Assembly (NCBI RefSeq): GCF_000007225.1
Contig: NC_003364.1
Coordinates: 1,530,001 to 1,562,000, forward strand
DNA: 32,000 nucleotides
Direction of reading: 5' to 3'
Origin: Pyrobaculum aerophilum str. IM2
GTDB lineage: Archaea; Thermoproteota; Thermoprotei; Thermoproteales; Thermoproteaceae
Shown here one piece after another: positions 3,966 to 32,000 of the stretch. The notes beneath the pieces were generated by a model that saw nothing but the letters and a program-made list of their open reading frames with translations, was not told where the DNA came from and did no database searches. Position 1 is the first letter of the stretch. Each line of letters opens with the position of its first letter. A program made the translations under genes and the position numbers.

Positions 3966-4613
3966 GGCCTCTTCCCGAAGTACTCCTCTACTATCTTGCC
4001 GGCCCAATTAGCCCACATTGTCCTCTCCTCGTCGTCTAGCACCGCGCCTGCTCTCAACGACGGGTGTAGAGTGGGCTTCCTCTCCTCATTTATGCCGAGG
4101 ATTTCCGTGAGGTATTTCTTAAACCCGACCTTCATAATAAAGTCGCCAATTCTGTCTTTATGCTTCACCACGCCCTTTTCCATGTACTCCATCCAGCTCT
4201 CCACAGTCTTTACCACCCAGTCCATGGCCTCCTCCACTGAGTTAACAACTGCCAACGGCTTGCCCATTTTGCCGCCGAATCTGCCCTTTACATGCCCGCC
4301 GACGACTACGGCTATTTTCACCTTCTTCCCCGGTTTTATTGCTGGGAACGCCGCTCTTATGCAGTGCATGGATTTTTTACACCTACTGCCGTCTATTTTC
4401 AACTCCTTACCGTCCCATGTAATTGCCCCGCTTGGGCAATTAGCTGCCAGCTTGGCCGGGTCCACCTCCCCAGCCTCAATCTTCCTCCTCAAAAGCTCTT
4501 GATCCACCTCAGGAGCGCCCTCCCAAACGCCAATAAAACCAAAATCAGCGCGATGAACAGCCCTGGTGCAGTCGAAGGGACAGCCGGAGAACTTCGCCTT
4601 GAACTTAAAGGGA
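3598..4613. repeat. Left arm of a 1016-bp inverted repeat (dsrA 3' part plus dsrB 5' part)
   Basis: Reverse complement of 16611-17626. Every stretch I compared by eye was identical. The ORF-track translations crossing the two arms are identical in pairs across the repeat (3996-4502 vs 16722-17228; 4292-4729 vs 16363-16932; 3556-3846 vs 17378-17677). Confidence 0.9.
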
Positions 4614-16017: not shown

Positions 16018-17262
16018 ATGGAAGTTCGTGTAAAAAGGCCCCTTACAGTAGATGAATATGCAAAAGAGGGAATGGAGATGTTAAAATACTATGAGTCCGG
16101 CCCCTGGCCTAGCCACGTGGCGGAGCTGAAGAAGAGCAAATACCCCATTGAGGCATACGCCGCGGGGCTTGCCGCCAGGAAGACCATGTGGGCGGCCGGG
16201 TCGGCGAAAATAAGATATGTATACACTGGGTTTATCGCCCGCAGGACTCGCGACGGGAAAATAGCCGAGCTCCACTTCCGCGTATGGCAACCGTCAGGAT
16301 ATCTCTACAGCACTGAGAAGCTGAGAAAACTAGTGGACTTCGCCGATAAATACGGCCTTGGGCTAATAGAACTGGCGGGACAACAGGGACAGATGATAAT
16401 ATCCGTGAGGCCCGAGGTGGCCGATGAGGCAGTGGATTATTTGAGAAACGTAGTTGGTACAGATATCGGCGCCACTGGGGACACCATTAGAGAGCTGGCC
16501 GCGTGCGTGGGGCCCGCCCTCTGCGAGTTCGCCCTGTACAACACCTTGGAGGCCAGGGACAAGTTCTTGACCCATCCCAAGATATACGAGTGGATGTCCA
16601 ACCAGCTGTTTCCCTTTAAGTTCAAGGCGAAGTTCTCCGGCTGTCCCTTCGACTGCACCAGGGCTGTTCATCGCGCTGATTTTGGTTTTATTGGCGTTTG
16701 GGAGGGCGCTCCTGAGGTGGATCAAGAGCTTTTGAGGAGGAAGATTGAGGCTGGGGAGGTGGACCCGGCCAAGCTGGCAGCTAATTGCCCAAGCGGGGCA
16801 ATTACATGGGACGGTAAGGAGTTGAAAATAGACGGCAGTAGGTGTAAAAAATCCATGCACTGCATAAGAGCGGCGTTCCCAGCAATAAAACCGGGGAAGA
16901 AGGTGAAAATAGCCGTAGTCGTCGGCGGGCATGTAAAGGGCAGATTCGGCGGCAAAATGGGCAAGCCGTTGGCAGTTGTTAACTCAGTGGAGGAGGCCAT
17001 GGACTGGGTGGTAAAGACTGTGGAGAGCTGGATGGAGTACATGGAAAAGGGCGTGGTGAAGCATAAAGACAGAATTGGCGACTTTATTATGAAGGTCGGG
17101 TTTAAGAAATACCTCACGGAAATCCTCGGCATAAATGAGGAGAGGAAGCCCACTCTACACCCGTCGTTGAGAGCAGGCGCGGTGCTAGACGACGAGGAGA
17201 GGACAATGTGGGCTAATTGGGCCGGCAAGATAGTAGAGGAGTACTTCGGGAAGAGGCCATGA
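16018..17262 (+). CDS. dsrA: Dissimilatory sulfite reductase alpha subunit, copy 2
   Basis: Same Cys motifs as copy 1. The N-terminal ~200 aa are strongly diverged from copy 1, and the C-terminal ~216 codons are identical to it. Confidence 0.9.
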   Translation: MEVRVKRPLTVDEYAKEGMEMLKYYESGPWPSHVAELKKSKYPIEAYAAGLAARKTMWAAGSAKIRYVYTGFIARRTRDGKIAELHFRVWQPSGYLYSTEKLRKLVDFADKYGLGLIELAGQQGQMIISVRPEVADEAVDYLRNVVGTDIGATGDTIRELAACVGPALCEFALYNTLEARDKFLTHPKIYEWMSNQLFPFKFKAKFSGCPFDCTRAVHRADFGFIGVWEGAPEVDQELLRRKIEAGEVDPAKLAANCPSGAITWDGKELKIDGSRCKKSMHCIRAAFPAIKPGKKVKIAVVVGGHVKGRFGGKMGKPLAVVNSVEEAMDWVVKTVESWMEYMEKGVVKHKDRIGDFIMKVGFKKYLTEILGINEERKPTLHPSLRAGAVLDDEERTMWANWAGKIVEEYFGKRP

Positions 17263-17626
17263 CCGCCGACCCCGTCGCGCAGAGGCTTCAGAAGAGGTTG
17301 CCAGTTCCTTACACTGAGTGGTTGCCCGAGTTAATAAGGCGCAATGTGGGCAAGTGGGTGGACAGGAAGTTCCACGGCTACGGCATTATTGAACCCATAT
17401 CCTCAACTGGGGATAGGGTGTTCACCGTAAAGGTGGGCACTCCGCCGAATTTCAGAATGAGCACGGAGACTTTGAGAAAATTTATAGATATTGCAGATAA
17501 GCTGGGCATCGGCGGTATAAAAATCACCCGCAACGGCAATTTGGAAATTCTCACCGACTCTCTAGACAAGGCGTTGAAGATAAAAGAAGAGGTGGAGAAA
17601 ATGGGCTTCCCAGTGGGAGGGTGGGG
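16611..17626. repeat. Right arm of the 1016-bp inverted repeat
   Basis: Reverse complement of 3598-4613. A further identical 32-nt patch at 17643-17674 follows a 16-nt divergent gap. Confidence 0.9.
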
Positions 17627-18374
17627 GCCTACTCTGTGGTCTATAAATTCGTGTACTGCATTTCTCACGTGTACCACGGCGGTTGTAGACGCGCCGAGTA
17701 TTACTAAAGTGCTGTACGACCACTTAAAGCCCTACTTCACCGGAGAGGTGAAACTGCCGGCTAAGTTGAGGATTAACGTGTCGGGATGCCCCAGCTCTTG
17801 CGGAGGCTTTACCTCTGATATAAATATCGTCGGCCACTACGGAGACGCGCCGACTTACGACCCAGAGCGCGTCAAGTTATGTCTGCCTAAGTCGGCTAAG
17901 GCGCTTGAGATGGGCCACGTGCCCGAGGTGGCTGAGGTCTGCCCCACCGGCGCAATTAAAGTATACGGCAAGCCTGACGGCACCGTAGGCTTAGACGTCA
18001 TTAGGAGCAAATGCATTGCCTGCGGCCGTTGCCGCGACGTCTGCGACTGGATTGATTTCGACGAGTCTAAAGCCGGCGTGGCTATTTTAGTAGGCGGAAA
18101 GGCCAGCAACACTGGCCGCGGCCCCATGCCCTCTATACAAGTAATACCGTGGGTGCCCGCCATACCGCCTGAATATAGAGAGATCGTGGCCGTTGTGAAG
18201 ATAATTATAGACGTCTGGAGGACAAACGCCAGAGAGGGCGAACGTATCGGCGACTGGATAGCCCGGATTGGAATGGAGCAGTTCTACAAGCTCTTAGACA
18301 TACCTGTGACTAAGTGGAACAAGCCTGTAACGCTGGCCGGGGAATTCGGGATAAGACAGTTCGGCCCTATTTAA
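17259..18374 (+). CDS. dsrB: Dissimilatory sulfite reductase beta subunit, copy 2
   Basis: ATGA overlap with dsrA. The first ~122 codons are identical to copy 1 and then diverge (GCPSSC, CIACGRCRDVC). Confidence 0.9.
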   Translation: MTADPVAQRLQKRLPVPYTEWLPELIRRNVGKWVDRKFHGYGIIEPISSTGDRVFTVKVGTPPNFRMSTETLRKFIDIADKLGIGGIKITRNGNLEILTDSLDKALKIKEEVEKMGFPVGGWGPTLWSINSCTAFLTCTTAVVDAPSITKVLYDHLKPYFTGEVKLPAKLRINVSGCPSSCGGFTSDINIVGHYGDAPTYDPERVKLCLPKSAKALEMGHVPEVAEVCPTGAIKVYGKPDGTVGLDVIRSKCIACGRCRDVCDWIDFDESKAGVAILVGGKASNTGRGPMPSIQVIPWVPAIPPEYREIVAVVKIIIDVWRTNAREGERIGDWIARIGMEQFYKLLDIPVTKWNKPVTLAGEFGIRQFGPI

Positions 18375-18375
18375 A

Positions 18376-18861
18376 GTGAGTATTTACTACATAATTGGAA
18401 ATCTTCTTTTACAACTCCGCTTCCGTTATGGAGTTGAAGAAGTTGACGACAGCGTTGAGCTTGTAAATTTAGTAAAGTCCCAGGAGGAGGGAGTTGAGAA
18501 GACGTATATCTACTCGCCCCCGGGGCGTCCGCGGCCCTATTTAATATCAGCCATGCTGTCCCCTCCATACGTGGCGCTGGCAGTGGCGGATTTAGACGAT
18601 GTGCGGCAGATACACGCCGATATCCCCCTTGAGGACGTTGAGGAGGCCACTACGGTGGTAGTGGACAACTACGCCCCGTTTATAATGCCCTTAAAAAAAG
18701 ACGATGGGGTTATCTACGGAGTGCTGGGGTTTAAGACTGTGGTGGAGTCCGATGTTTTAACCGGCGGGTTCTTTGAAACATTGCTTGAAGACTTCGAGTT
18801 AAACAGCGATAAATACTTTAGTTCAATTGTTAATAAACTCACTGAATTGAAACAAAAATAA
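18376..18861 (+). CDS. Hypothetical protein downstream of dsrB copy 2 (start uncertain)
   Basis: 161-aa ORF starting with GTG 2 nt after the dsrB stop. It is acidic and does not look like DsrD. I recognised no family. Confidence 0.4.
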   Translation: MSIYYIIGNLLLQLRFRYGVEEVDDSVELVNLVKSQEEGVEKTYIYSPPGRPRPYLISAMLSPPYVALAVADLDDVRQIHADIPLEDVEEATTVVVDNYAPFIMPLKKDDGVIYGVLGFKTVVESDVLTGGFFETLLEDFELNSDKYFSSIVNKLTELKQK

Positions 18862-18950
18862 GATAATACCCCTTTTCTGTTCACATATTTATTAATAAAT
18901 CTCCTTATCTATGTGTATATAGATATCTTTAGATATTTGTAAAGTTAAGT

Positions 18951-18984
18951 AAACTTTAAATATATTAAAACTTTAAATATATTA
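18951..18984 (+). repeat. Tandem 17-bp direct repeat (aaactttaaatatatta, two copies) containing TATA-like boxes
   Basis: 18951-18967 equals 18968-18984 exactly. The second copy ends 16 nt before ATG 19001. The palindrome agatatct (18921-18928) lies upstream. Confidence 0.6.
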
Positions 18985-19000
18985 TGTTTCACAATAGATA

Positions 19001-19696
19001 ATGTTGTATTGGCCTAAACTTGACGATTCCGCCAATAACATTGTTGCATATGTAGTGAGCAACGGCCCTGTCACTATGTACCGCGTCGCCAGGGATTTAA
19101 ATCTCCATTTTTCCCATGCGTATAGAAAGTCGAAGAAGCTGGAGGACTCCGGTTTGTTGACCTCTATCGGAGGCCCCAGGGCGAGCCTTTACGACGCCAC
19201 CGTTCGAGGCCTGTTGTATGCCTATGTGGCAAAGCTGGCGAGCCGCGAGATTATATTAAAGAAACTGAGGGTGGTGCTGGGGCTACACCTCTTCTCTCTG
19301 GAAGAGGTGGAGAGCTTTATAAAATTCTTCTTAACAGTGGCGAATAAAGAGGCGCCCGTGGGCAGTCTTGCCACAATGGTCAGTTATATTTTGGACAAAT
19401 GCGGCTCTGATTATACAAGGTGTATGGCCAACCTCGACGAAAGAGACCGGGTTCTCGCCAGCAGGGTCATGGCCTATGGCATAATAAAACTTATTCACAA
19501 CTTCTTCGGCGACTCTCTTGTAGTAGCCGACGAGGGCTATTACGCCATTGTGAAATTAAGTACTAGGCAGCTGCTGGCAGTGCAGTGCAAGCTGTGCGGG
19601 AGGGAGAAATACTGTAGCCTGGATCCGTGTCCCTCGTTGAAAGACATAATTGAGGTAAAGTTGAGAGACGCCTCTAGGCTAGTGCCAGCCTTTTAA
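19001..19696 (+). CDS. Hypothetical protein with an N-terminal winged-helix-like domain (putative regulator)
   Basis: The N-terminus NNIVAYVVSNGPVTMYRVARDLNLHFSHAYRKSKKLEDSGLL resembles an archaeal wHTH. The C-terminus has a CKLCG...C..C cysteine cluster. Confidence 0.5.
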   Translation: MLYWPKLDDSANNIVAYVVSNGPVTMYRVARDLNLHFSHAYRKSKKLEDSGLLTSIGGPRASLYDATVRGLLYAYVAKLASREIILKKLRVVLGLHLFSLEEVESFIKFFLTVANKEAPVGSLATMVSYILDKCGSDYTRCMANLDERDRVLASRVMAYGIIKLIHNFFGDSLVVADEGYYAIVKLSTRQLLAVQCKLCGREKYCSLDPCPSLKDIIEVKLRDASRLVPAF

Positions 19697-20096
19697 TCCA
19701 CTTTTCTAAAATCTCCGCGCTTTCTATAAAATTGACAAGTGGGATGTTGGTTTTACAAACGCACCTCACGGCGCCTCCGTCGTTTTCCAATAGGTACACG
19801 CCGTCTCCGCCGTTTGCCAGCGCTAAGGCGTATTCCCCATCTGCGTAGTACTCTATATAAGGCGGGTGTAGCCGGGGCGGCGTTGCCTTCTCAGTGCAGT
19901 CGGGGAAGCTTGTGGCCTCTAAGGCCCACGCCAGTTCCTCATCTCTTATACAACGGCCTCCTGCGCTTAAGACGTGGCCGAACAGGTATAAGCCGTCCTC
20001 TAGCACAATCCCCTTGTTGGGGACTCTACACGGCTCGCCGTTTTTAATAATAAATTTCTTTAATTCTGAAAACAGCTCTGGCAAGTAAATACTCAC
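19674..20096 (-). CDS. Hypothetical protein, weakly SMI1/KNR4 (SUKH)-like, coupled to tusA
   Basis: The GTG start overlaps the tusA TGA (GTGA). The pattern LPELFSELKKF...NG...GGDGVYLLENDGG...FIESAEILEKWI is reminiscent of SUKH domains. Confidence 0.4.
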   Translation of the reverse strand: MSIYLPELFSELKKFIIKNGEPCRVPNKGIVLEDGLYLFGHVLSAGGRCIRDEELAWALEATSFPDCTEKATPPRLHPPYIEYYADGEYALALANGGDGVYLLENDGGAVRCVCKTNIPLVNFIESAEILEKWIKRLALA

Positions 20097-20320
20097 TTCA
20101 ATCTCTTAACAACTATTTTTAACGTTCCGTCGGGGAGCTTCTCGCTGGAAATCACCTCATGCCCCATTCTCTTAGCCCAGGCCTTGATGTCTGGATCCGC
20201 CGCAGGGTCTGTTGCCAGGACTTCTAAAACATCGCCGATTTCAATCTGGGTTATTGCCTTGGCGGTTTCCATAACTGGCACGGGGCAGAACTTCCCCCTG
20301 ACGTCTAGGACTTTTGGCAT
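20093..20320 (-). CDS. tusA: TusA/SirA-family sulfurtransferase
   Basis: 75 aa. DVRGKFCPVPVMETAKA carries the CPxP active-site motif. Confidence 0.85.
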   Translation of the reverse strand: MPKVLDVRGKFCPVPVMETAKAITQIEIGDVLEVLATDPAADPDIKAWAKRMGHEVISSEKLPDGTLKIVVKRLK

Positions 20321-20444
20321 GGACTCTCCACAGCTCCCCTTTATAAATTTAGTTACTAATTCGCGCGGGAATATCTCTCCTCTTTTATAAGTGCAAAATT
20401 AACACATTTACATAATGTTTATAAAGTAATGTGGTACTGTAGCT

Positions 20445-20696
20445 GTGAGCGAGGCGGTGTTAGACGAGGTCAGGCGAGTGTACGTGCTGGACTTAAGGGG
20501 GTATGTGTGTCCATATCCTCAACTGGCCACTGTGAGGGCTATGCGCAAATTGCCCAAGGGAAGCGTCCTCGAGGTTATTACCGATAATCCCCCTAGTTGT
20601 GAAAACGTGCCGGCCGTAGCTAGGAGAGAGGGGGGCCTTGTGGAGGGGGTTTATGAAGTAGAGCGCGGAGTTTGGAAAATTGTAATTAGGGTATGA
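20445..20696 (+). CDS. TusA-like protein (second copy)
   Basis: 83 aa. [17 protein letters not shown] carries the CPxP motif. GTG start. The stop overlaps the start of the next gene (ATGA). Confidence 0.8.
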
Positions 20697-22399
20697 ACAG
20701 GCTGGAGAGGTTTAAAGAGAGGGTTAAGCTCTATAGAGAGGCTGGGATTGCCTTGGAGTCCCTCTCTCTGGGCTGTTCGGTGAAGGTGGATTTGTACAAC
20801 GTCTTGTACCCGGCCCTCCAGTTGCTCCGGGAGGAGATGTACAAGCTGAATTTAGTAATCGCCCCCAGGGAAGACGCGGCGATAATGCCTGGGGCTTCCG
20901 CCGCGCTGAGGCGGTATTTCCTAGACGTGGAGAACCCGCGGCTCGACCCGGCGGAAGTGGAGAAGCTGTCGCCCACAGTGGCAATAGTGCTGGCCCAAGT
21001 GTACATGGGCAAGGCCGCGGCGCCCGACCTCTTCGCCAAGTACGTCGCCGGGCTCTACAAGGCGCTTGGGTCCAGTAGACACAAAGTGTGGCTGGGGAAG
21101 GGCCACAGCATTATCAGCACTAAGAAGGGGGCTGAGTTCTTCATGGTGGACTTCCTAAAGGCGGAGGGGCAGGAGGGGTATATAGTGGCTAATAACGACA
21201 CAATACAAGTTATTGACCCCTCTGAGGATTTCGACTCGCCGCTACAAATCGCCGTCGCTGTAAACAACGCTCTTAACGACTTGTTCACAAAAGGGGCGTG
21301 GAAGGATATTCACATAGCCCCCGTATACGACGCGCCGCCGCCTTTTAGAGGGCCTTTAGAGGCGAGGGTGAAGAGCTACGCCTCCAGCCTGGGGAAACTT
21401 GTTGAGGCCCCGCAACCTGAAATGGGTTACCTCCTCCTAGGCGCCACTGCATATGCGAGGCTCGACCGGGAGCCGCCCCTTTTTTACGACAAAATAAGAG
21501 AGGGCTTCGTGGTCGTGGTCACGAGGCCCTTCGGCGAATTGGCCTACTTCACCACCTACGTGGCAGTTCACACCGACGAGACTTTGATGAAAAAATTCGA
21601 GGAGGAAGTGATGCCAATAGAACAGTTTGAGGCCGAGAAGCGCAGGGTGTTAGAAATTATGGCAACGCCGAATTTAGAAGCGGCCAAGGCCATTTACCAA
21701 TACCTCCCCGACTTGGGAGAGCGCTTTGATCCCGAGGCTCACATCGCCGCGACTATTGACGTCTCAGGCCCGGGGATATTTGTATTTAAGGAGGTGGCGG
21801 AAAGGGCAGGCGTCGACATTAGGCTTTTTGACGTCCCGTTGATGTCAAGCGCAGTTTCTAAATTCGCCGCAGATAATTACATAATGCCCGACGCCACCGC
21901 TGGCACTAACGGGGCCATTGCCATATTTGCCAGCAGAAAAGTGGCCGAGGAGCTGGTGGAAAAACTCTCAAAAGCACCCCACGCAAAACCGACAGTAATA
22001 GGCGTAGTTGAGGGGAAGGGGGAGGGCAGATTGATAGTGCCGGAGTGGGCCCTTCAGTACATCTCCAGCAAGAAGCTGAGGGAGAAGCTGGGGGCTGCCT
22101 CCGTCCTCGGGGGGCTTGCCAGAGTGGTCGGGAGGCCTATACGCGCGGTGGCGTATGTAGAAGGGGCTGTGCAAGGCGTCGGCTTCCGCCCAATGGCCCG
22201 GGCGAGGGCCAAGGCCCTTGGCTTGTTGGGATACGCCAAGAATCTCCCAGACGGCAGGGTGGAGGTGGTAGTCGAGGGAGACGAGGAGAGAGTGCGGAAA
22301 TACGTAGAGGAGTTGTGTAAGGGGTTTGAGAACTGCAGAGTGGGCCAAGTGATATACGCGGAGGCAAGGGGCGAGTTCAGCGACTTCTCAATTTTATGA
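20693..22399 (+). CDS. SelD-like (PurM/AIR-synthase-fold) protein fused to a C-terminal acylphosphatase domain
   Basis: N-terminal GCSVK has the same Cys-x-x-Lys spacing as Sel[42 protein letters not shown] and TAGTNGAI follow in SelD order. The last ~90 aa carry both acylphosphatase signatures ([12 protein letters not shown]; [17 protein letters not shown]). Confidence 0.7.
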
Positions 22400-22764
22400 A
22401 AATAGGGGTAATAATCGCCTCCGACGATCCCATGAGGCTGTATGTAGCCGCCACGTATATAGCCACTGAGGTGGCCAGGGGGAATGAGGTTGGCGTTTTC
22501 GTCACCGGCAGGGGCGTGGTGCCGTTCTCCAAGGGAGATCTCTCTGACTATCCAGAGGCTGTCAAAATGAGAGAAATGAAGGTGACTTGGCTGGAGATAT
22601 TCAAAGCGGCGAAGCCGCTGGGGGTAAAGGTGGCTGTCTGCGAAACTGCGGCGAAGATATACGGCCTAACTGCCCAGGACTTCCGCCATTTGGAAATTGT
22701 TGACGAAATTTCCTCTATGTATTCATTCCTAGAAGAATATGGGGAAAAAATTGTTACGTTTTAA
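22396..22764 (+). CDS. DsrE/DsrF-like family protein (COG2044-type), second copy
   Basis: 122 aa with [11 protein letters not shown] and the [12 protein letters not shown] Cys motif. ATGA overlap with the SelD-like gene. Confidence 0.7.
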
Positions 22765-22836
22765 GCCTTCTTCTCAGACTCTTTCTTCTTCTCTTCCACT
22801 TTTTTCGGTGGGGCGCACATAGTCACAAATTTATAT

Positions 22837-23193
22837 TTAGAATTTAAATTTTTCGAATAAAGAGGGGCTCACTAACTTGGCGAGGTAATCGCATAAGATG
22901 TCGGCGCATTTGACGCACATCTCGCCTTTGGGATCTGTTAAGCGTTTTTCAAGACAGCGCGCGCACCGCATTACCTCTTCGGGGGGATTTGGCGACAGCT
23001 TTTTCAAAAGGGCCGGTAGCGCCTCTACGCTCGGCGTGGGGCTGTGAGGGGGCCTGCCCAGTAGGCCCAGTATTAAAGAGCGCACGGCCACAAAGGCGTT
23101 GTAACAAGCCCACGGGTGGTCCCCCAGCTCCAGCCCTCTGAGCGCCTCTTTCATGTGTCTATAATGTCTCTCGAGCCACTTGGGGTGAATCAC
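22837..23193 (-). CDS. Hypothetical protein: helical N-terminus (weakly HEPN-like) plus a CxxC...CxxC pair
   Basis: 118 aa with a GTG start. RCARCLEKRLTDPKGEMCVKC looks like a zinc-ribbon-type Cys pattern. Confidence 0.35.
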   Translation of the reverse strand: MIHPKWLERHYRHMKEALRGLELGDHPWACYNAFVAVRSLILGLLGRPPHSPTPSVEALPALLKKLSPNPPEEVMRCARCLEKRLTDPKGEMCVKCADILCDYLAKLVSPSLFEKFKF

Positions 23194-23231
23194 GTGGCGA
23201 ATAAAATTTAACTATATATCACTCTCGCCAC

Positions 23232-23708
23232 ATGCTATTGTCCATGTGTAAAACCGCCTCTATTTTAGACTACCGGCCGGTGGTTTTTCTAGACGGCGAG
23301 GGCTACGTCAGAGTCACCGCCGACAATGGGAGGAGCATAGTGGCCAAGGCGGTGAGGGGGCCGTGTAAAGGGGTGTCTCGGGAAGTCGCTTTCCTCCTAT
23401 ATCCCTATTACGGCTGGGGGAGGATGGAGGTGGCGGCGGAATTCCAAATAGAGCCCGTGGACCCCGTCAGAGCCACGAGAGTTGTCATGAGAGTCCCCTT
23501 CGGCATCAGCGAGGTAGTGGTGAGGAGACAGCTGGAGGGCTATCCCATTTATGAGGGGTCTGTGGCGTTGGAGTACTTAGAACATATTGAATTCGGCGAG
23601 GTGGTGCACGTAGAGCCGTCGCAGTTTTCCGTTCTCACGTCTGAGACTAAGCTTAGGCTTGTGGAAGTCCCAGTGGAGGATTCAGAGATTATATTCTTGC
23701 GCCGTTAG
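23232..23708 (+). CDS. Hypothetical protein
   Basis: 158-aa ORF with coding-like composition. No recognisable motif. Confidence 0.4.
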   Translation: MLLSMCKTASILDYRPVVFLDGEGYVRVTADNGRSIVAKAVRGPCKGVSREVAFLLYPYYGWGRMEVAAEFQIEPVDPVRATRVVMRVPFGISEVVVRRQLEGYPIYEGSVALEYLEHIEFGEVVHVEPSQFSVLTSETKLRLVEVPVEDSEIIFLRR

Positions 23709-23760
23709 TATATATATTATCCACAGGGTGGAAATAATGTTTTTCATAACGTTTTAGTAT

Positions 23761-25128
23761 ATGCCCATGCCAGCTCCTCTGGAGCCCCACGGCGGTCGTT
23801 TAGTATATAACGTAATTGAGGACAGAGATAAGGCGGCGGCTATGATACAAGGGCTGCCGTCTATTGAAATTGAGCCGACGTTAGGCCCCGACGGCTCGCC
23901 TATCCGCAACCCGTATAGAGAGATCATGTCTATTGCATACGGCTTCTTCAGCCCGGTGGAGGGCTTTATGACGAGAAATGAAGTGGAGTCGATTCTCAAA
24001 GAGAGGAGGCTTTTAAACGGCTGGCTCTTCCCCTTCCCCTTGATATACGACGTCGACGAGGAGAAGATTAAGGGCATTAAAGAGGGAGACTCAGTCCTTC
24101 TAAAGCTCAAGGGTAAGCCTCTCGCCGTGTTGAACGTTGAGGAAATATGGAGGCTTCCAGACCGCAAAGAGCTGGCCGATGCGGTCTTCGGCACGCCGGA
24201 GAGAAATAAGGAGGTTGTGAAGAAGAGATTTGACGAGAAACACCCAGGGTGGCTGATCTACCGATCGATGAGGCCGATGGCCCTCGCCGGAAAAATTACT
24301 GTTGTAAATCCGCCGAGGTTTAAAGAGCCTTACTCGCGGTTTTGGATGCCTCCGCGCGTCTCGAGGGAGTACGTGGAGAAAAAGGGGTGGCGGATAGTAG
24401 TTGCCCACCAGACTAGAAACGTCCCCCACATAGGCCACGAGATGCTTATGAAAAGGGCAATGTTCGTGGCGGGAGGCGAGAGGCCTGGAGACGCCGTTTT
24501 AGTCAACGCTATAATTGGCGCCAAGCGGCCTGGGGACTACGTGGATGAGGCGATTTTAGAAGGCCACGAGGCGTTGAACAAAGCCGGGTATTTCCACCCA
24601 GACCGCCACGTGGTCACCATGACGCTATGGGATATGCGCTACGGCAACCCTCTTGAGTCTCTTCTACACGGCATAATTAGGCAGAACATGGGGGCTACTC
24701 ACCACATGTTCGGCCGCGACCACGCCGCGACTGGCGACTATTACGACCCCTACGCCACGCAGTACTTATGGACCAGAGGGCTCCCCAGCTACGGCTTAAA
24801 CGAGCCTCCCCACATGACTGACAAGGGGCTGAGGATAAAGCCGGTTAACCTCGGCGAGTTCGCCTATTGTCCCAAATGCGGCGAGTATACATACCTCGGC
24901 ATGTCCTACGAGGGGTATAAAGAAGTGGCGCTGTGTGGACACACGCCGGAGCGCATCTCCGGCTCCCTCCTCCGCGGCATTATAATAGAGGGCTTGAGGC
25001 CGCCTAAAGTGGTGATGAGGCCTGAGGTATACGACGTAATTGTGAAGTGGTGGAGGGTATACGGCTATCCCTACGTGACCGATAAATACCTAAGAATAAA
25101 GGAACAAGAGCTAGAGGTGGAGCTATGA
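23761..25128 (+). CDS. sat: Sulfate adenylyltransferase (ATP sulfurylase)
   Basis: The motif HQTRNVPHIGHEMLMKRA and the downstream GRDHAA are ATP-sulfurylase signatures. There is a C-terminal Cys pattern CPKCGEY...CGH. Confidence 0.9.
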   Translation: MPMPAPLEPHGGRLVYNVIEDRDKAAAMIQGLPSIEIEPTLGPDGSPIRNPYREIMSIAYGFFSPVEGFMTRNEVESILKERRLLNGWLFPFPLIYDVDEEKIKGIKEGDSVLLKLKGKPLAVLNVEEIWRLPDRKELADAVFGTPERNKEVVKKRFDEKHPGWLIYRSMRPMALAGKITVVNPPRFKEPYSRFWMPPRVSREYVEKKGWRIVVAHQTRNVPHIGHEMLMKRAMFVAGGERPGDAVLVNAIIGAKRPGDYVDEAILEGHEALNKAGYFHPDRHVVTMTLWDMRYGNPLESLLHGIIRQNMGATHHMFGRDHAATGDYYDPYATQYLWTRGLPSYGLNEPPHMTDKGLRIKPVNLGEFAYCPKCGEYTYLGMSYEGYKEVALCGHTPERISGSLLRGIIIEGLRPPKVVMRPEVYDVIVKWWRVYGYPYVTDKYLRIKEQELEVEL

Positions 25129-25469
25129 CATATAAAATAGGGCTTTTAATAGACGAGAAGAGATACGAGGCTATTAAAAACACCCCGCTGGCCCAGAGTT
25201 TAAAGTCTATGTTCGGCGGCGAGATAAAGATGTTAGAGGTTGAGGTTGATGAAGAGACCGCCAAGAGAATACTCGCGGAATTCCCGTCGGCCAGAGTAGA
25301 CGCGAGGGGCTTTCTCGAGGATCTGCCAGTGGCGTTTAAGAGGGCGCTCTTCGAGGCCATAGCCCAGGAGGGGAATGCGGACAAATCGGTGTTCGAAAAA
25401 GTGTTTCAAAAAATCGACGTTATTAAAGAGGCGGCGAAGAAGGAGAAAGAATACGTGCCCCCGCCGTAG
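25125..25469 (+). CDS. Hypothetical 114-aa protein translationally coupled to sat
   Basis: ATGA overlap with the sat stop. Charged, helical-looking protein with a lysine/glutamate-rich tail. No family recognised. Confidence 0.5.
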   Translation: MTYKIGLLIDEKRYEAIKNTPLAQSLKSMFGGEIKMLEVEVDEETAKRILAEFPSARVDARGFLEDLPVAFKRALFEAIAQEGNADKSVFEKVFQKIDVIKEAAKKEKEYVPPP

Positions 25470-25647
25470 GTTGGAGCAATACTTTTTTCAAATAGGCCGA
25501 GTGCTTAACGACAAACACATAAGTTTTCCCATCCTTCTCAGTCCTTATAGTTACGCCCTTGAAGTTTTTAACCGCCTCCGACAGGGGGAGCCCGGCGTAT
25601 TGAGGCGGGAACTCCACCACGTCGTTTTTCGCCCTTATATACGCCAC
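25423..25647 (-). CDS. Possible small protein (74 aa)
   Basis: ORF with a GTG start. The N-terminal 50 aa look protein-like (AYIRAKNDVVEFPPQYAGLPLSEAVKNFKGVTIRTEKDGKTYVFVVKH). The C-terminal tail overlaps the convergent gene by 47 nt. Confidence 0.3.
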   Translation of the reverse strand: MAYIRAKNDVVEFPPQYAGLPLSEAVKNFKGVTIRTEKDGKTYVFVVKHSAYLKKVLLQPTAGARILSPSSPPL

Positions 25648-25767
25648 TACGTCGCATAGACAGAACTTTTACAACACCTCTTCGTATTCCATATGGATCA
25701 CTGGACTATTCCTAAAATACTTTATTACTAGGCCGTGGGAAACACCTATTTTCAATAATGTGGGAAC

Positions 25768-25779
25768 AATTTTATTAAA
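25768..25779 (+). promoter_or_regulatory. TATA-like box upstream of dsrM
   Basis: aattttattaaa ends 21 nt before ATG 25800. Confidence 0.4.
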
Positions 25780-25799
25780 GGCAATACAGAGGTTCACAT

Positions 25800-26558
25800 A
25801 TGGACCCAGTCACAATAATTTTATACGGCGTATTTCCCTATATTTCACTACTGCTTTTTGCGGGGGGCGTGTTGTATAGACTCGGCAGCTGGCTGTCCGC
25901 CAGCGGCCTCACGGGGCTTTACTCAGTGGCGGTTAAGGGCTATACCTGGAGCTTTGGCTCCAGGCTGGGGGAGGTTTTAAAACGGGTTTTCCTCCTATAC
26001 ACCTTGACGATGTCCGACAAAATGCTTTTAGTGGGCTCGTTCCTATTCCACTGGGGCATTTGGATAGCGTTGCTGGGCCACGCCTCTATGATTATCCCGC
26101 CGGAGCAATTCGGCATGCCTAAAGAGACGCATAAGGCCATTGCGCTATACGCCGGAGGGACAGCTGGCGTCATGTCGCTAATAGGCTTAGTGATACTCCT
26201 CATAAGAAGGATTGTGAGGAGCGACGTGAGGAGGCTGAGCTTTCTAGACGACTGGTTCGCCTTAATCCTCCTGCTCCTCCTCGTGGCCGTGGGGAATTAC
26301 CAGACGCTTGTGCTACGCCCTGACTACATGGAGACTGTAGCCCCGTGGGTCCAGTCCGTGTTGGCGGGGAGCCCCAGGCTTGAGCTAGTGGAACACTGGG
26401 ACTTCGCCACTAAGCTACACGTCTTCCTGGCGCTGTTGTTTATCGCGTACGTCCCGTTCGGTAAGTTAATACACCCCTTCTCCTTCTTGGCAATGCCGAC
26501 GTTGTGGAAAAGCCCCACGAAACTATACGGCTACATATTGGCGAAAATAAGAGGGTAA
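25800..26558 (+). CDS. dsrM: DsrM (NarI/HdrE-like membrane di-heme b subunit)
   Basis: Five to six hydrophobic helices. The conserved His-bearing segments FHWGIWIALLGH and HVFLALLFIAYVPFGKLIHPF are typical of NarI-like cytochrome b. Confidence 0.85.
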   Translation: MDPVTIILYGVFPYISLLLFAGGVLYRLGSWLSASGLTGLYSVAVKGYTWSFGSRLGEVLKRVFLLYTLTMSDKMLLVGSFLFHWGIWIALLGHASMIIPPEQFGMPKETHKAIALYAGGTAGVMSLIGLVILLIRRIVRSDVRRLSFLDDWFALILLLLLVAVGNYQTLVLRPDYMETVAPWVQSVLAGSPRLELVEHWDFATKLHVFLALLFIAYVPFGKLIHPFSFLAMPTLWKSPTKLYGYILAKIRG

Positions 26559-26609
26559 TTAACAACTTTTTTGAAATAAGATTTATAGAAGACCCACGGC
26601 TATTCACAC

Positions 26610-28330
26610 ATGACTGTAGCGGAGGCACAACACGCACACGAGGCGGTTTCCGCCCCGTCTTTGTTCAAAGCCGCCTACAACGAAAGACACCTATCCGGTA
26701 CCGCTCTTATTCAAAACCGCCGACGGCACACGGCGCAGTTACTTTCATAAGTCAGGAAATCATGTCAGGAAAGCGTACTTCCTCTTGACAAATGCCAATA
26801 TCAGGACGACTGGCAAATTGCTGAGCAAGGCGGCTCTAGCCTTGAACAAACCCCCACAGTTAATCAATGTTAAATACCAGTTGAATTAGAGACATGGAGT
26901 CCCCCTACGCCCCCCACCCCGCCCCGGGCAGGGCGGGGCGGCCCTGGCGCGCGGGCCGAAGGCGGGGAGAGCCCGCCGAGGGGGTTAGCGACACTCCGGG
27001 CGTTGCCCGCCCCGGAAGCCTCTGGCGATCCGGGGCCCCGTGCCCCCCCGGGACGCCCGGAGAGCAGAAAGGGGGCATGTGTCTAGACAACTGCCCCACC
27101 TACGTGAGGACTTAGGATATTTTCAACTCGCCGGTGGGCAGGGCGGAGTTGTTAAGGGCTGTGTTAAAAGCCGACTCGCCCAGCGGAAAAATCTTCGGAA
27201 AATTAGTCGGGGCGGCGAAACTCACTGAGGAGCACTTAGAGAAAATATATACCTACTACTACCAATGCCTGGAGTGTAGGAAGTGCGCATACGCCTGTCC
27301 CTTCGGCATTGACCAAGCCGATATAACCCGGCTGGTTAGGGATGTGATGTATGAGGCAGGTATAATTTCGAAATACATCGCGACGGTAATAGACGCAGTG
27401 GAGAGGACTGGCACTAACCTCGGCATGAAGCCTCTGGCGGTAGTCAAGTCTATTACATTCGCCGCGGGGGAGATAAAGGAGGAGAAAAAAGTGGAAGTGG
27501 AGTATTACATTTACAGAGACGATCAGGGGAAGATGTTAAAATATAAAGGCGATCAGCTAGTGGGCGAGGTGACTAAGGAATCAGGGGACTGGCCCGAGGC
27601 CTTGTTATTACCTCCTTCCGCCGACTTCTTTACAAATATAGAGACGTTAAAGGGGTATATGCTCTTCCTCCACCTAATGGGAATTAAATTCGCCTTCTCC
27701 ACTGAAATGGCCGAGCTGGCAAACTTCGGCTTGTTCGCAAGCGAGAGGCACATGAAGTTCATCGGCCAGAAGGCGGTGAACGCCGCCTTAAGGCTTGGGG
27801 TTAAGTTCGTAATTGCGGGGGAGTGCGGACACGGATGGAGGGCGTTTAAAAACTACACAGGCCCGGAGCTGGAGAAACACGGCATTAAGACAATGCACGT
27901 ATTCCACCTCGTAATAGACGCTATTAAAAACGGCAAATTGAAGCTAAACCCTGAGGCGAATGGAGATATAGTGTACACATTCCAAGACTCTTGTAACTAC
28001 GCCAGAGGCGGCGATTTGACTGAGGAGCCCCGGTTTATAATTAAACACGTGGTGAAGAAATTCGTCGAGTCTCCCAACAACCGGGAGAAGACTTGGTGTT
28101 GCGGCGGCGGGGGAGGCCTGTTGACTGACGGGCTTTTGCCGTAGAGAATTCAATACGCCAAGAACTGGTACGAAGACGCCTTGAAGGCAGGCGCCAACCA
28201 CGTGGTGAGGGCTTGCGCCATATGCAAGGCGCAGCTAAGCCACACTATTCCGCACCTCAACAAGGAGTACGGCAAAAGTATTACATACAGCGGGTTAATG
28301 GATTTAGTCTACAAGGCCACAGTGGTGTAA
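26610..28330 (+). pseudogene. dsrK: DsrK (HdrD-like CCG-domain Fe-S protein), disrupted. The 5' third is scrambled, and there are in-frame TAGs at 27113-27115 and 28142-28144.
   Basis: The body reads ...GMCLDNCPTYVRT*DIFNSPVGRAELL...YQCLECRKCAYACPFG...TWCCGGGGGLLTDGLLP*RIQYAKNWYEDALKAGANHVVRACAICKAQL... in a single frame, ending at TAA 28328-28330. A DsrK-like N-terminal segment (KPPTTKDTYPVPLLFK) lies in a different frame at ~26665-26715. The start is uncertain. Confidence 0.8.
26898..27075 (+). other. Extremely GC-rich structured element embedded in the dsrK 5' region (possible ncRNA, intron or insertion)
   Basis: By hand count, 134 of 160 nt are G or C in 26901-27060, against ~45% in the preceding 60 nt. 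Nested helices: 26901-06/27070-75, 26917-24/26931-38, 26939-44/26953-58, 26961-66/26972-77, 26994-27002/27054-62 and 27009-15/27030-36. Confidence 0.5.
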
Positions 28331-28428
28331 TAGCTGGCAATAAATTCGAATTCTATTCGAAATTTATTTCGCAGATATTCCTATTTTGCCAGTTAATAAT
28401 ACATTTTAACATAAGTATCGACGATTCT

Positions 28429-29571
28429 ATGAAATCGGTAGTAATAATAGGTGGGGGAGTTGGGGGCTTGTTCACCGCCAATAAATTGGCGTCTAAATTA
28501 TCGGCAGAAATTAGAAGAGGCGAGGTGTCAGTAACTGTAGTGGAGCCTCAAGACAGACAAGTGTACCAGCCGGGCTTTCTATACGTGCCGTTTAAAGAAT
28601 TAACGCCTGATGTAATGTTCAAGCCTGTGTCTAAACTGGTGTCGCCGTTAGTAAAAGTGGAGAGAGAGCCCGCGGCTAAAATTGACCTGTCGGCGAAGAA
28701 AATAGTTTTGCAAAGCGGTAAGGAGCTGAAATATGACTACTTAATCGTGGCGACTGGGGCTGTGGTGAAGACGGGGAGCTACCCCGGGTTTGGAGAGGCG
28801 TGGCACACCTTATGGACTTATGAAGGCGCTAAGAGACTGAGGGAGGCGTTGAGGAGGTTTAACGGCGGCACAATCGTAGTCTCTGTGACGTCTACGCCGT
28901 ATAAATGCCCCGTCGCTCCGTACGAGTTCCTCGGACTCTTGAACGACTATTTAATGGCCACCGGGCTCAGGGCGAAGACAAAGGTTATTTTCACCACAGT
29001 GGCGCCGCACCTCCACGCCCAGCCGCAAGTCAATAAATTCCTAGAGGAGATCATGAGGATGTGGGGCTTTGATTACAAGACGAAATTCCAAGTAAACGCA
29101 ATAGAGCCCGGCAAAATCTCCGGCCCGGAGGAGATTAAGGCAGATTTAATTATGGCAGTGCCGCCTCACGGAGGCTCCGAGGTTGTGACTAAGTCCGGGA
29201 TAGGAGACCAAGCTGGGTGGGTGCCAGTGGATAGACACACGCTTCAGATTCAAGCCCAGGGCGCCACTGGGGCGGAATACGCCATAGGCGACGCCACTAA
29301 CCTTCCAGTTCCTAAGGCGGGTTCCGTGGCTCACTTCCAGAGCGAGATTGTGTCGTCGAGAATAGCAGAGGAGATACAATTGGGATACTCCGACACTGAA
29401 TACGACGGCCGCGTTATATGTTTTATACTCACAGGCTTTGAAGAGGCAACTGTGGTCTCGTGGAATTACGAAAACCCGGCGAAATACCCGCCGCCTCCCA
29501 GCCGCTTCTTCAACCGCTTGAAAGACATGACTAATTACTCTATATGGTCAGTGATGAGGTGCGGGCTATGA
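28429..29571 (+). CDS. FAD-dependent pyridine-nucleotide-disulfide oxidoreductase, SQR/NDH-2 family
   Basis: N-terminal VVIIGGGVGGLFTA dinucleotide fold, then IVATGA, YKCPVAPYEF and AIGDATN. I placed the start at ATG 28429. The ORF-track extension from 28213 lies over the out-of-frame dsrK 3' end and the spacer that follows it. Confidence 0.8.
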   Translation: MKSVVIIGGGVGGLFTANKLASKLSAEIRRGEVSVTVVEPQDRQVYQPGFLYVPFKELTPDVMFKPVSKLVSPLVKVEREPAAKIDLSAKKIVLQSGKELKYDYLIVATGAVVKTGSYPGFGEAWHTLWTYEGAKRLREALRRFNGGTIVVSVTSTPYKCPVAPYEFLGLLNDYLMATGLRAKTKVIFTTVAPHLHAQPQVNKFLEEIMRMWGFDYKTKFQVNAIEPGKISGPEEIKADLIMAVPPHGGSEVVTKSGIGDQAGWVPVDRHTLQIQAQGATGAEYAIGDATNLPVPKAGSVAHFQSEIVSSRIAEEIQLGYSDTEYDGRVICFILTGFEEATVVSWNYENPAKYPPPPSRFFNRLKDMTNYSIWSVMRCGL

Positions 29572-30023
29572 CGGCCCAAGAGCTCAAGCCCAGCGAGGAG
29601 AAAATAGAAAAACTCATAGAATTGCTTCAACAAGACAAAGTCCAAGAGGCTTTGATAAGCATAGTTGAGCGCCTCGACATAATTAAAGAGTTGGTCAACA
29701 CGCTGTATGACTTCAAGAGGAGCGGAGTATTAGATGACCTGTTAAACGCCGCCGCCTCGCTTAGGTTCTTCACCGAGGGCCTACTCACCAGGGAGTTCAT
29801 GGAAAGAGTATCTATACTACAAGAGGTGGCCCTGATTGCCGGCAACAATTTAGCAATGGACAGCTCTAAGGTGGACTGTCTCACATACGCCGTAGCCGCA
29901 GCGGATGACGCAAAGCCCGTGGGCCTATTTGGCTTATTAAACGCCTTGAGAGATCCAGAGGTGCAGAGAGGACTGGGCTTTTTAATAGCAGTGCTTAAAA
30001 AACTCGGTTCTTGCCAGCGCTGA
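29568..30023 (+). CDS. DUF1641-family protein
   Basis: ATGA overlap with the flavoprotein stop. The C-terminal GLFGLLNALRDPEVQRGLGFLIAVLKKLG matches the DUF1641 pattern as I remember it. Confidence 0.7.
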   Translation: MTAQELKPSEEKIEKLIELLQQDKVQEALISIVERLDIIKELVNTLYDFKRSGVLDDLLNAAASLRFFTEGLLTREFMERVSILQEVALIAGNNLAMDSSKVDCLTYAVAAADDAKPVGLFGLLNALRDPEVQRGLGFLIAVLKKLGSCQR

Positions 30024-30035
30024 AATCCCCCCTTT

Positions 30036-30557
30036 TTACGTTGAATTTAACATCTCGTACCGTCTTATAATTTTCAACTCTGTAGCGCTGAGCTTCCTCC
30101 TAGCCACTTCAGACTTCTTTAATTCGCCCTCCCGAGCCGTCACCTTGTATATGGTGATCTCCCCGGGGTCTTCCCGCACGGCGTATCTGACCTCCTTGCC
30201 CTCTATCAGCTTGGGGAAATCGGCGAGTTCCTCAACGGCGTAGTAGGCGGGAGTGTGAAGTATGGCGACTCTCTCCACATACGGAAGTAGAGACGCCACG
30301 GCCTCGGCGAGGTCGTTTCTATAAGGCCCCATTAAAAAGAGGGCGTGTCTAGCGGAGTTGCGGAACTGCGCAGCGGGGACGGCCTCTACCCTCTTGCCCC
30401 TCGCCATTAACAAGGCCGTAATGGCAGAGGCCATTGAGATACAGCTGGGCGAGTTTTCAAAAACTATAACCACGTCGTCTAAATCAGAGGCCATGTCGGC
30501 GTATATTAAAGAGAGGACAGCTCTGTACTCCACCTCGGCCCCCTCCATTGAGGACAT
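30036..30557 (-). CDS. Hypothetical protein
   Basis: 173-aa ORF with coding-like composition. No motif recognised. Confidence 0.4.
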   Translation of the reverse strand: MSSMEGAEVEYRAVLSLIYADMASDLDDVVIVFENSPSCISMASAITALLMARGKRVEAVPAAQFRNSARHALFLMGPYRNDLAEAVASLLPYVERVAILHTPAYYAVEELADFPKLIEGKEVRYAVREDPGEITIYKVTAREGELKKSEVARRKLSATELKIIRRYEMLNST

Positions 30558-30630
30558 TGCGAATACTAGTTTTAAACATTGAGGGGCGAAATCAAGTGAG
30601 CATTAAAATACTGTTGCCAGTTGGCAGTAT

Positions 30631-32000
30631 ATGTATGACGTTGTAGTCCTCGGGGGCGGCAGCGCTGGCGTGGCCGCCGCCGTGAAGGCGGCGCAACTAG
30701 GGGCTAAAGTAGCCGTTGTAAACTCAGGGCCTCTCGGGGGTACTTGTGTTAATGTTGGCTGTGTGCCCAGCAAATTTCTCATCAGAGCGGCTCAGCTAAA
30801 ACGCTACGCAGAACGCCCCTTCTTCAAGGGCATTTCCGCCAAAGTGGAGGTGGCTTTTGACGCGCTGTTGCAACACATGAAGGAAGTGGTGGAGGAGTTG
30901 CGCAGGGAGAAATACGAGGAGGTTTTGAAGTATTACGACGTCGACATTATAGAGGGATACGGCTACTTAAAAGATGCAAAGACCGTGAAAGTAGGGGAGA
31001 GGGAGGTGCGGGGCGAGAAGATAATAGTGGCCACTGGGGCCAGGCCTAGGGTGCCTGAGATCCCGGGCCTTAAAGAGGCCATGGCGCGAGGGATGGCCTT
31101 CACCAACGAGGAGTTTTTTAAACTTGATCATATGCCCAGCTCTATAGTGTTTATCGGCGGCGGCGCCATAGCCGCCGAGCTGTCGCAAGCGCTGGCGAGG
31201 CTGGGGATAGAGGTGGCCGTAATATACCGCAGCTCTTTTTTAAAATACGAGGAGGAGATTGCCTCCAAATTCGTCGAAGAGCTTTTAGCAAACGAAGGCG
31301 TCCGCTTAATAAAAGCCGCGGTCACTGCGGTGGAAATTAGGGGCAGGGAGGTGGAGGTGAGACACTCAGGGGGCTCCGTTAGGGCCGAGGCCCTCTTCGT
31401 GGCGGCTGGAAGGGCGCCCAATATTGAGCCGCTTGGGGGCCTCCTAAAACTGGGGCCTAACGGCGGCGTTTTAGTCAACGAGAGGATGGAGACCTCCCTC
31501 CCAGGCGTTTACGCCGCGGGAGACGTCACGGGGGGTTTAGAGGGCGCGCGCTTCTTAGAAAACGCCGCCGCCAGACAAGGCGTTGTGGCGGCGGTAAACG
31601 CCATGGGGGGAAATGCCAAGTTCAACCCCCTGGCGGTTCCCCGCGTGGTCTTCACAGATCCGGCAGTCGCCAGCGTGGGCCTCAGGGAGGAGGACATGAT
31701 TAAAGGCGGCATAGGGTGTCGTTGTAGAGCCGCGCCTATTGAGGCAGTCGCGGCAGGGTGGACTAAGGGGCAGACAACGGGGTTTATAAAAATCAACACA
31801 TACCCAGAGACTTGGAAAGTATCTGTAAAGAGGGGGAAAATAGCGGGAGCTTTAGTCGTTGCGCCGGAGGCAGAGGAGTTAATAAACGTCTTCGCCATGG
31901 CGATTCAGCTGGGGCTCACGGTAGAAGACTTGATTGAGTGGCTACCCAGTTTCCCCTCTTACGGAGAGGCCCTGAGGCTGGCCGCGCTTGCCTTTTATAC
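30631..32000 (+). CDS. Class-I pyridine-nucleotide-disulfide oxidoreductase, MerA/Lpd-like (3' end outside the window)
   Basis: MYDVVVLGGGSAGVAAA followed by the redox-active GGTCVNVGCVPSK, then a second dinucleotide fold VFIGGGAIAAEL and YAAGDV. I translated it by hand and the frame stays open to the window edge. Confidence 0.85.
   Translation, partial: MYDVVVLGGGSAGVAAAVKAAQLGAKVAVVNSGPLGGTCVNVGCVPSKFLIRAAQLKRYAERPFFKGISAKVEVAFDALLQHMKEVVEELRREKYEEVLKYYDVDIIEGYGYLKDAKTVKVGEREVRGEKIIVATGARPRVPEIPGLKEAMARGMAFTNEEFFKLDHMPSSIVFIGGGAIAAELSQALARLGIEVAVIYRSSFLKYEEEIASKFVEELLANEGVRLIKAAVTAVEIRGREVEVRHSGGSVRAEALFVAAGRAPNIEPLGGLLKLGPNGGVLVNERMETSLPGVYAAGDVTGGLEGARFLENAAARQGVVAAVNAMGGNAKFNPLAVPRVVFTDPAVASVGLREEDMIKGGIGCRCRAAPIEAVAAGWTKGQTTGFIKINTYPETWKVSVKRGKIAGALVVAPEAEELINVFAMAIQLGLTVEDLIEWLPSFPSYGEALRLAALAFY

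Follow-up and report, generated by a model that had tools for sequence, protein, structure and literature searches.

The 32,000-nucleotide stretch of NC_003364.1 studied here (positions 1,530,001 to 1,562,000, in the following called the window) contains a dsrK/hdrD-like pseudogene, in which a segment of extreme GC content takes the place of the first iron-sulfur (Fe-S) motif. This segment reached dsrK within 424 nt of foreign DNA, whose insertion was accompanied by a deletion. It belongs to a repeat family, the copies of which lie in multiple genomic contexts, are linked to mobile elements and share conserved hairpins. With rather better than even confidence we regard the GC-rich segment as the conserved 3' module of this foreign DNA and of a Pyrobaculum-specific repeat family, i.e. 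as a structured RNA borne by a mobile element and captured in a dsrK pseudogene.

An insertion with deletion in dsrK

On either side of the insert, blastn gives 99.1-99.9% identity between the window and insert-free contigs. The blocks of the window aligning to strains with an intact gene (99.6-99.9% identity) run from 16780 to 26649 and from 27074 to 32000. The 424 nt between these blocks (26650-27073) stand for 185 nt of intact dsrK (L001 9852-10036, blastn). The affected region is composed as follows:

26610-26649, + strand: surviving first 13 dsrK codons (MTVAEAQHAHEAV), matching MTVAEARHGHEA of the orthologue P0001
26650-27077, + strand: entire insert of foreign DNA; 424 nt (26650-27073) are unambiguous, to which 4-5 nt of right-junction microhomology (GGC.T) are added
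26650-26908, + strand: variable 5' arm of the insert (259 nt, about 48% GC); other copies show weak similarity over the last ~50 nt only
26909-27062, + strand: conserved GC-rich core, 94% identical to P. arsenaticum (blastn, nhmmer, alignments)
27063-27077, + strand: 3' terminal segment of the element (AGCAGAAAGGGGGCA; GGAATAGGGGTCGT in other copies), its end in every copy according to the alignments
27078-28330, + strand: rest of the dsrK/hdrD-like frame, broken by in-frame TAG at 27113-27115 and 28142-28144

The deleted 185 nt encode residues ~14-75 including CVHCG and comprise the first CX2CX2C, which explains why CLDNCP alone survives. The net change in dsrK length amounts to +239 nt and shifts the frame. 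At the right junction the window reads GGGGGCATGTGTC and the intact gene TGCGGCGTGTGTC, sharing the GGC.T microhomology at 27074-27078. Comparison with intact alleles revealed no target-site duplication at the insert junctions. A first-pass annotation of the sequence had placed the element at 26898-27075 and thereby covered only the 3' 40% of the foreign DNA, the real limits of which are 26650 and 27073-27078. Its description of a low-complexity P/G/R/A translation, of CLDNCP as the surviving half of the motif and of stops just upstream in every frame was correct. The first Fe-S motif is indeed absent, but the cause is the deletion accompanying the insertion. What appeared as a missing motif is a deletion-insertion lesion in a pseudogene, and a tally of functional DsrMK modules should leave out this locus of GCA_013329805.1. 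Orthologous DsrK proteins carry no homologous segment at this position.

An intron, be it of the bulge-helix-bulge or another type, or a recoding element in a functional dsrK is practically out of the question. The pairings flanking the GC-rich segment, on which such a reading could be based, exist in the predicted fold, but the outer one (gaca/tgtc) is coincidental, since 27080-83 is native dsrK. With 185 coding nt including CX2CX2C gone, splicing cannot restore the protein; that simple excision would not bring back the first Fe-S motif had already been noted and holds true, residues ~14-75 being replaced. The true left boundary at 26650 lies about 250 nt upstream of the proposed helix, and no bulge-helix-bulge is formed at the true junctions (26649/26650 and about 27077). 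Furthermore, there are two extra in-frame TAG codons, and the same element occurs elsewhere in unrelated non-coding and antisense contexts. The replaced 185 nt, the frameshift, the TAG codons and the uninterrupted gene in near-identical strains together exclude this explanation. The initial proposal of a structured-RNA gene, a mobile element or an intron can thus be narrowed down to inserted foreign repeat DNA, RNA-like and linked to mobile elements; the intron, canonical or degenerate, falls away.

The window is 100% identical to contig DUJP01000037.1 of the metagenome-assembled genome (MAG) GCA_013329805.1, and the insertion belongs to a single lineage within an uncultured Pyrobaculum population. 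One might suspect an assembly artefact in this MAG, either a chimeric join or misassembly of a high-GC region, because every other contig breaks within the core or shortly in front of it and contig L016 links another upstream flank to the same core and the 3' part of dsrK. We nevertheless consider this very improbable. The left junction and the arm, up to the first 10-30 nt of the core, are present at 100% identity in three assemblies from other samples (L012, L013 and L014; samples ERR1254308, Joint Genome Institute (JGI) 3300030446 and ERR9765783); these contigs stop at window positions 26918, 26789 and 26938. Five other contigs contain the right junction and the final 64 nt of the core, and contigs from SRR4028133, SRR4136273, SRR4136277 and ERR9765783 begin at 27013 and continue into dsrK. 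In addition, the core is verified in the finished P. arsenaticum genome. Finally, the breaks fall exactly at the branches expected of a two-copy repeat: Logan unitigs are built with k = 31, and the unitig end at 26938 and start at 27013 fit branch points at 26908/26909 and 27042/27043. These break points imply a second context for 26909-27042 in the same samples. L016 (MEGAHIT, ERR1254308) displays this second context: its first 261 nt are unlike the window arm, whereas the contig is 100% identical to the window from 26909 onward. It joins an upstream flank of the type found at the trailer of a CRISPR array to the dsrK 3' part via the shared core. L016 is probably an assembler join across the repeat; alternatively, two copies might indeed have recombined.

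The C-terminal 417 codons of dsrK exhibit 88-90% identity to intact Fe-S/CCG proteins (485-495 residues) of Pyrobaculum species and 81% to the Thermoproteus tenax protein. At the two TAG positions (27113 and 28142) the orthologues carry K and L. The DsrM of the window recurs unchanged in eight contigs from other samples, several of which encode an intact DsrK of 493 residues. Near-identical strains form an allelic series at dsrK codon 89, with TAG in the window, L002, L005 and L006, AAG in L003 and TTG in L001 and L007; L002, L005 and L006 are free of the insert despite their TAG. L005 has suffered an independent 806-nt deletion within the same dsrK (window-equivalent 27885-28690). Since the codon-89 TAG occurs also in strains without the insert, dsrK was already inactivated or dispensable, and the insert is therefore without function for dsrK. 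The TAG in insert-free strains and the L005 deletion indicate that dsrK is being lost in this population. TTG is one step away from TAG and two from AAG, which suggests a reversion of the nonsense codon or else tolerance of TAG.

A dispersed repeat with a conserved 3' end and hairpins

Copies of the element came to light when the core, translated in six frames and concatenated, was searched against protein databases. Matches to the core peptide were P0122 (P. arsenaticum), P0121, P0126 and P0127; P0121 and P0123 stem from Pyrobaculum MAGs and P0126 from another MAG. The P. aerophilum protein AAL63760 (P0127) bears the name 'paREP13', a repeat-family label of the 2002 genome annotation. The translated window core is 78% identical to it (E = 1.1e-13), and ~65 N-terminal residues of this protein are a frame-2 translation of the element. 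In P. arsenaticum, P0122 corresponds to ABP51010 (L021 6001-7284), a 'type II/IV secretion ATPase' whose T2SSE domain breaks off behind the Walker A region; ~90 residues at its C-terminus translate the element in antisense. These open reading frames use three different frames or strands, and 1-nt and 15-nt indels distinguish the copies, so that the frames are spurious and the element is non-coding. At least three database 'proteins' hence contain spurious translations of a non-coding repeat, namely paREP13, the tail of ABP51010 and hypothetical proteins in several MAGs. The element is homologous to the paREP13-type family and dispersed over several genomic contexts. Neither Pfam nor NCBIfam holds a family model for paREP13, and the literature searched, including that on Pyrobaculum GC-rich elements and small-RNA catalogues, neither mentions paREP13 nor describes the element.

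Copies located at the DNA level are:

P. arsenaticum CP000660, about 1307603-1307855, minus strand: copy in L021
L023, L024 and L027: further copies

They are 94-97% identical to one another and to the window core (blastn, 94% over 152 nt for P. arsenaticum; nhmmer, E = 4e-41). The short form of about 253 nt comprises an 86-nt, moderately AT-rich 5' block starting from CCGCCCGACCGG, followed by the GC-rich core of ~165 nt, which ends in ...GGAATAGGGG(T/A)CGT. The insert and the short form alike begin with CCGCCC. In all copies homology ends at the identical 3' nucleotide, in front of at least six different 3' flanks: dsrK in the window, the truncated ATPase gene of P. arsenaticum (antisense), L023, L024, a site upstream of gatD in L027, and P. 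aerophilum. The 5' flanks are of three different kinds.

The G+C content of 134/160 (0.8375) at 26901-27060, exactly as first counted by hand, is the highest 160-nt value in the window, which has a mean of 0.503; the runner-up stretch elsewhere reaches 0.6875. The minimum free energy (MFE) of 26885-27090 on the + strand is -125.7 kcal/mol compared to -106.9 +/- 4.7 for 200 dinucleotide-preserving shuffles (z = -4.0; 0/200 as good). The - strand of the same stretch folds less well (z = -2.3). All helices listed in the first-pass annotation are present in the MFE fold of the + strand. The long-range helix exists, but has 10 bp instead of 9, and the hairpin that it encloses 8 bp instead of 7. The elements of the fold are:

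26901-06/27070-75, + strand: closing helix CCCCCU/AGGGGG (MFE fold)
26917-26938, arms 26917-24/26931-38, + strand: hairpin H1 (CCCCGCCC / GGGCGGGG; MFE fold), invariant save for the loop and the closing pair
26939-26958, arms 26939-44/26953-58, + strand: hairpin H2 (CGGCCC / GGGCCG), invariant in five copies
26961-26977, arms 26961-66/26972-77, + strand: hairpin H3 (GGCGGG / CCCGCC; fold and alignments)
26994-27003/27053-27062, + strand: long-range helix of 10 bp (inverted-repeat search), enclosing hairpins 27009-27036 and 27037-27052
27009-16/27029-36, + strand: 8-bp hairpin inside the long-range helix (inverted-repeat search)

A hand-curated consensus structure, consisting of a helix 26911-15/26980-84 around H1-H3 and the helix 26994-27003/27053-62 around two further hairpins, was tested on five copies. 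It pairs 97.2% of the cells, compared to 37-59% if the partners are slid by one to three columns. The 10-bp long-range helix exhibits two compensatory changes from U-A to C-G between the window and the other copies. Fifteen columns are substituted, nine of them unpaired, four in the two compensated pairs and three helix-terminal, and no internal base pair is broken. In L027, an insertion of 15 nt in the H3 loop forms a CCC-UUCG-GGG hairpin, i.e. C(UUCG)G. The C(UUCG)G tetraloop stabilises RNA; here it occurs on the + strand only. Judged from these sequences, the core is probably constrained to a structure formed by an RNA of the + strand, with a sample too small and uniform for proof. The outcome of the shuffle control, the extra copies and some covariation are in line with the earlier suspicion of a structured RNA.

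A known structured RNA, in contrast, was not recognized. None of the Rfam 15 covariance models reached its gathering score in the window, and three copies yielded only noise at E <= 10; this test covered RNase P type T, signal recognition particle RNA, tRNA and the CRISPR repeat. At the P. arsenaticum locus only the neighbouring CRISPR repeats score, and ARAGORN detected no tRNA. A relationship to type T RNase P RNA, considered because of a P4-like GAGUCCCCC...CAGAAAGGGGGC, was dropped, as upstream P1-P3 helices and a covariance-model match are lacking. Exact-pattern scans of viral contigs gave zero relevant matches, only chance matches of low GC content, and blastn against phage and plasmid collections gave no match.

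A 13-nt string, GAAGCCTCTGGCG, is found identically at 27015-27027, in the apical hairpin of the element, and at 27427-27439 in dsrK, 350 nt downstream of the insert. This is probably coincidence, the chance expectation being about 0.15.

Mobile-element context and possible function

The surroundings of the copies, several of which are located within or next to plasmid-like DNA, link the family to mobile elements. L024 and L025 match at 96-98%, right up to the point where the element begins in L024. The plasmid-like contig L025 (16.7 kb) carries genes for ParA, a T2SSE-type ATPase, a helicase and a RecA/KaiC-like ATPase; no viral hallmark genes were found on it. The trailer end of a CRISPR array of four repeats immediately precedes the element in P. 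arsenaticum and in the organism of L016. The P. arsenaticum array corresponds to 'Crispr6' of PMC3396285. Further features of the arm and of these loci are:

26752-26772, + strand: pair of TCAGGAAA, 13 nt apart, iteron-like; a third TCAGGA at 26801
26870-26877, + strand: TATA-box-like TTAAATAC, about 25 nt upstream of the GC-rich part, putative promoter element
L025 6050-6190, 7560-7720, 9260-9430, 13500-13600 and 16590-16672; L024 530-700; L023 790-950; L021 9350-9490: palindromic blocks
L021 7325-7553: CRISPR array of four repeats (Rfam CRISPR-DR45), transcribed toward the element, with 26 nt of the last spacer in between

Between the arm and the short form similarity is limited to the blocks AATCAA..TT and AGAG.CATG. 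The 82-codon open frame of the arm has neither a Pfam match nor a protein homologue. The TCAGGAAA pair represents the sole TCAGGAAA/TTTCCTGA 8-mers in the window; pairs of TCAGGAAA/TTTCCTGA at 12-nt spacing occur in blocks in L025, L024, L023 and L021. Among the loci compared, the best local match of the arm is the iteron-like block of P. arsenaticum (26 nt, 88%, E = 0.037), which lies 2 kb from the element. TTAAATAC aligns with AATCAAAATT of the other copies and is followed by the shared AGAG.CATG. A spacing of ~25 nt is typical of the archaeal TATA box and start site.

The plasmid-like element and the P. arsenaticum chromosome contain palindromic intergenic blocks of about 107-135 nt made up of TTTCCTGA/TCAGGAAA sites, which are probably binding-site arrays (iterons or operators). 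The P. arsenaticum array lies inside an apparent mobile-element remnant with ParA, the truncated ATPase and an iteron block. The T2SSE ATPase of L025 was considered as a relative of this truncated ATPase, but proved unrelated. An attachment-site hypothesis was likewise discarded: in the flanks examined there is no partial duplicate of either end of the element, and the L024/L025 junction has no shared core.

The sharply conserved 3' end in front of so many different flanks raises the question whether a non-autonomous transposable element transposed into dsrK, either a palindrome-associated transposable element (PATE) of the IS200/IS605 type or a miniature inverted-repeat transposable element (MITE). 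Its 3' part would be the right end, possibly a scaffold similar to omega RNA or reRNA with the variable flank as guide. The absence of a target-site duplication, the hairpin-rich end, the contigs breaking at the element and the common CCGCCC start would fit. Against it, the flanks examined contain no TnpA, TnpB or other transposase beside any copy, and no TnpB-like protein overlapping the core was found in libraries of 5.8 billion or 1.8 billion proteins. The 5' flanks, which end at the element with GGCGGTTT, GGGCGCCA and CCGCGGCG, share no target motif, and the target lost 185 nt. In P. arsenaticum the element appears to be single-copy, because the Logan unitig runs straight through it. Finally, the terminal inverted repeats are weak and rely on G-U pairs. 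A MITE is disfavoured by the missing duplication, the 185-nt deletion in its stead and the weak terminal complementarity. As a whole we regard transposition of this kind as unlikely, though credible enough to be kept in view.

Another explanation is a cis element acting at the DNA level in the plasmid-like element, e.g. a replication origin, a single-strand origin or a recombination site, where folded single-stranded DNA instead of RNA would account for the hairpins. The succession of the iteron-like TCAGGAAA pair, the AT-rich stretch 26860-26895 and the GC-rich hairpins would suit an origin, and the associated DNA encodes ParA, a helicase and a RecA-like ATPase. Changes from U-A to C-G are symmetric between the strands, and the conserved 3' end behaves as a recombination junction. 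On the other hand, the + strand folds clearly better than the - strand, and the C(UUCG)G loop extension is a motif of RNA stability present on the + strand only. Moreover, L025 itself lacks the GC-rich element, though it has iteron-like blocks, and the short-form copies possess only degenerate iteron-like sites. A DNA-level function therefore seems quite improbable to us.

Under the preferred reading of a mobile-element-borne RNA, the core would form a compact and very stable + strand RNA of about 170 nt with three hairpins and a helix-enclosed domain of two hairpins. A TATA box of its own, about 25 nt upstream, might drive expression, and the RNA would act for the mobile element and not for the host. 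With regard to the order of events, mobile-element DNA that ended in the module probably became attached to the chromosome through the module's conserved 3' end, where GGC.T microhomology is seen at 27074-27078. A later deletion may then have taken the rest of the element plus 185 nt of dsrK, sparing the core and the 259-nt arm. The captured fragment ends exactly at the 3' terminus of the family, which suggests that the end of the element took part in the joining and that the fragment is not a random piece.

Several observations weigh against this reading. The observed covariation was reached in 30/500 column shuffles, with five distinct, little-varying copies. The full 259-nt element of P. 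arsenaticum is no more stable than its shuffles (z = -0.85), and single-sequence folds vary among the copies and from the consensus fold, there being many G:C alternatives at 84% GC. The short-form copies have a poor TATA-like box. Downstream of the element there is no oligo-T terminator, and no partner protein is consistently found next to the copies. A search of genome contigs with a 20-mer straddling the repeat boundary returned one chance match in a Clostridiales MAG and is uninformative on copy number. Pattern scans of metagenome contigs gave zero matches in a collection that evidently lacks even the locus-bearing JGI sample, so that this result is uninformative, too. Finally, the whole insert is spanned by the MAG contig only, on which the pairing of left and right flank across the 134-nt shared core depends.

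As to function, the conserved scaffold stops exactly where the sequence turns locus-specific, and one natural position is directly downstream of a mini CRISPR array borne by a mobile element. By analogy, the element could be an uncharacterised mobile-element RNA of Thermoproteales, either of a guide type or directing integration (with a layout like TnpB reRNA, scaffold followed by 3' guide) or one involved in plasmid maintenance or anti-defence. We put this forward as a rather doubtful suggestion.

Comparison with known systems and neighbouring features

The closest relative is paREP13 (AAL63760), to which the translation of the window element is directly homologous. It differs in being annotated as a protein, and the window copy has a different, longer 5' arm. 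With the GC-rich non-coding RNA genes of hyperthermophiles (Rfam Hgc families, type T RNase P RNA of Pyrobaculum) the element shares a GC spike in a genome of ~50% GC and nested G:C helices, furthermore a TATA-like box at about -25, a variable hairpin capped by UUCG and compensatory changes in one helix. Unlike these genes, it is dispersed and linked to mobile elements instead of residing at one conserved locus, and an Rfam match is missing.

Right ends of IS200/IS605 PATEs and of TnpB omega RNA or reRNA loci resemble the element in their structured, precisely bounded 3' end, the variable flank, and the lack of both target duplication and strong inverted repeats. They are unlike it with respect to the nearby TnpA/TnpB and the 5' target motif, both absent from the flanks examined here, the apparently low copy number of the element and the 185-nt target deletion. 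Capture of filler DNA or mobile fragments in pseudogenes, as a further parallel, also combines loss and gain of sequence (185 nt lost and 424 nt gained in our case), microhomology at one junction, a prior nonsense codon and other lesions in sister strains; the window fragment, however, ends exactly at the conserved 3' terminus of its family.

The element can be defined as compact, about 170 nt long with about 84% GC, apparently structurally constrained, plasmid-linked in Pyrobaculum and absent from Rfam. Its precise 3' end sits at recombination junctions. If transcribed, it would join a very small number of known non-coding RNAs that stem from Thermoproteales mobile elements. Repeats of this type with extreme GC content break short-read assemblies, but can be traced through the spurious open reading frames produced by gene callers.

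The local gene order in the window is sat, a DUF6955 gene, a dsrM-like gene (Nitrate_red_gam) and the dsrK/hdrD-like gene. An inverted repeat of 1137 nt (97% complementary, 3477-4613 and 16611-17747) extends over NIR_SIR-type genes and brackets a 12-kb segment, which is a candidate for an invertible segment or a recent inverted duplication.

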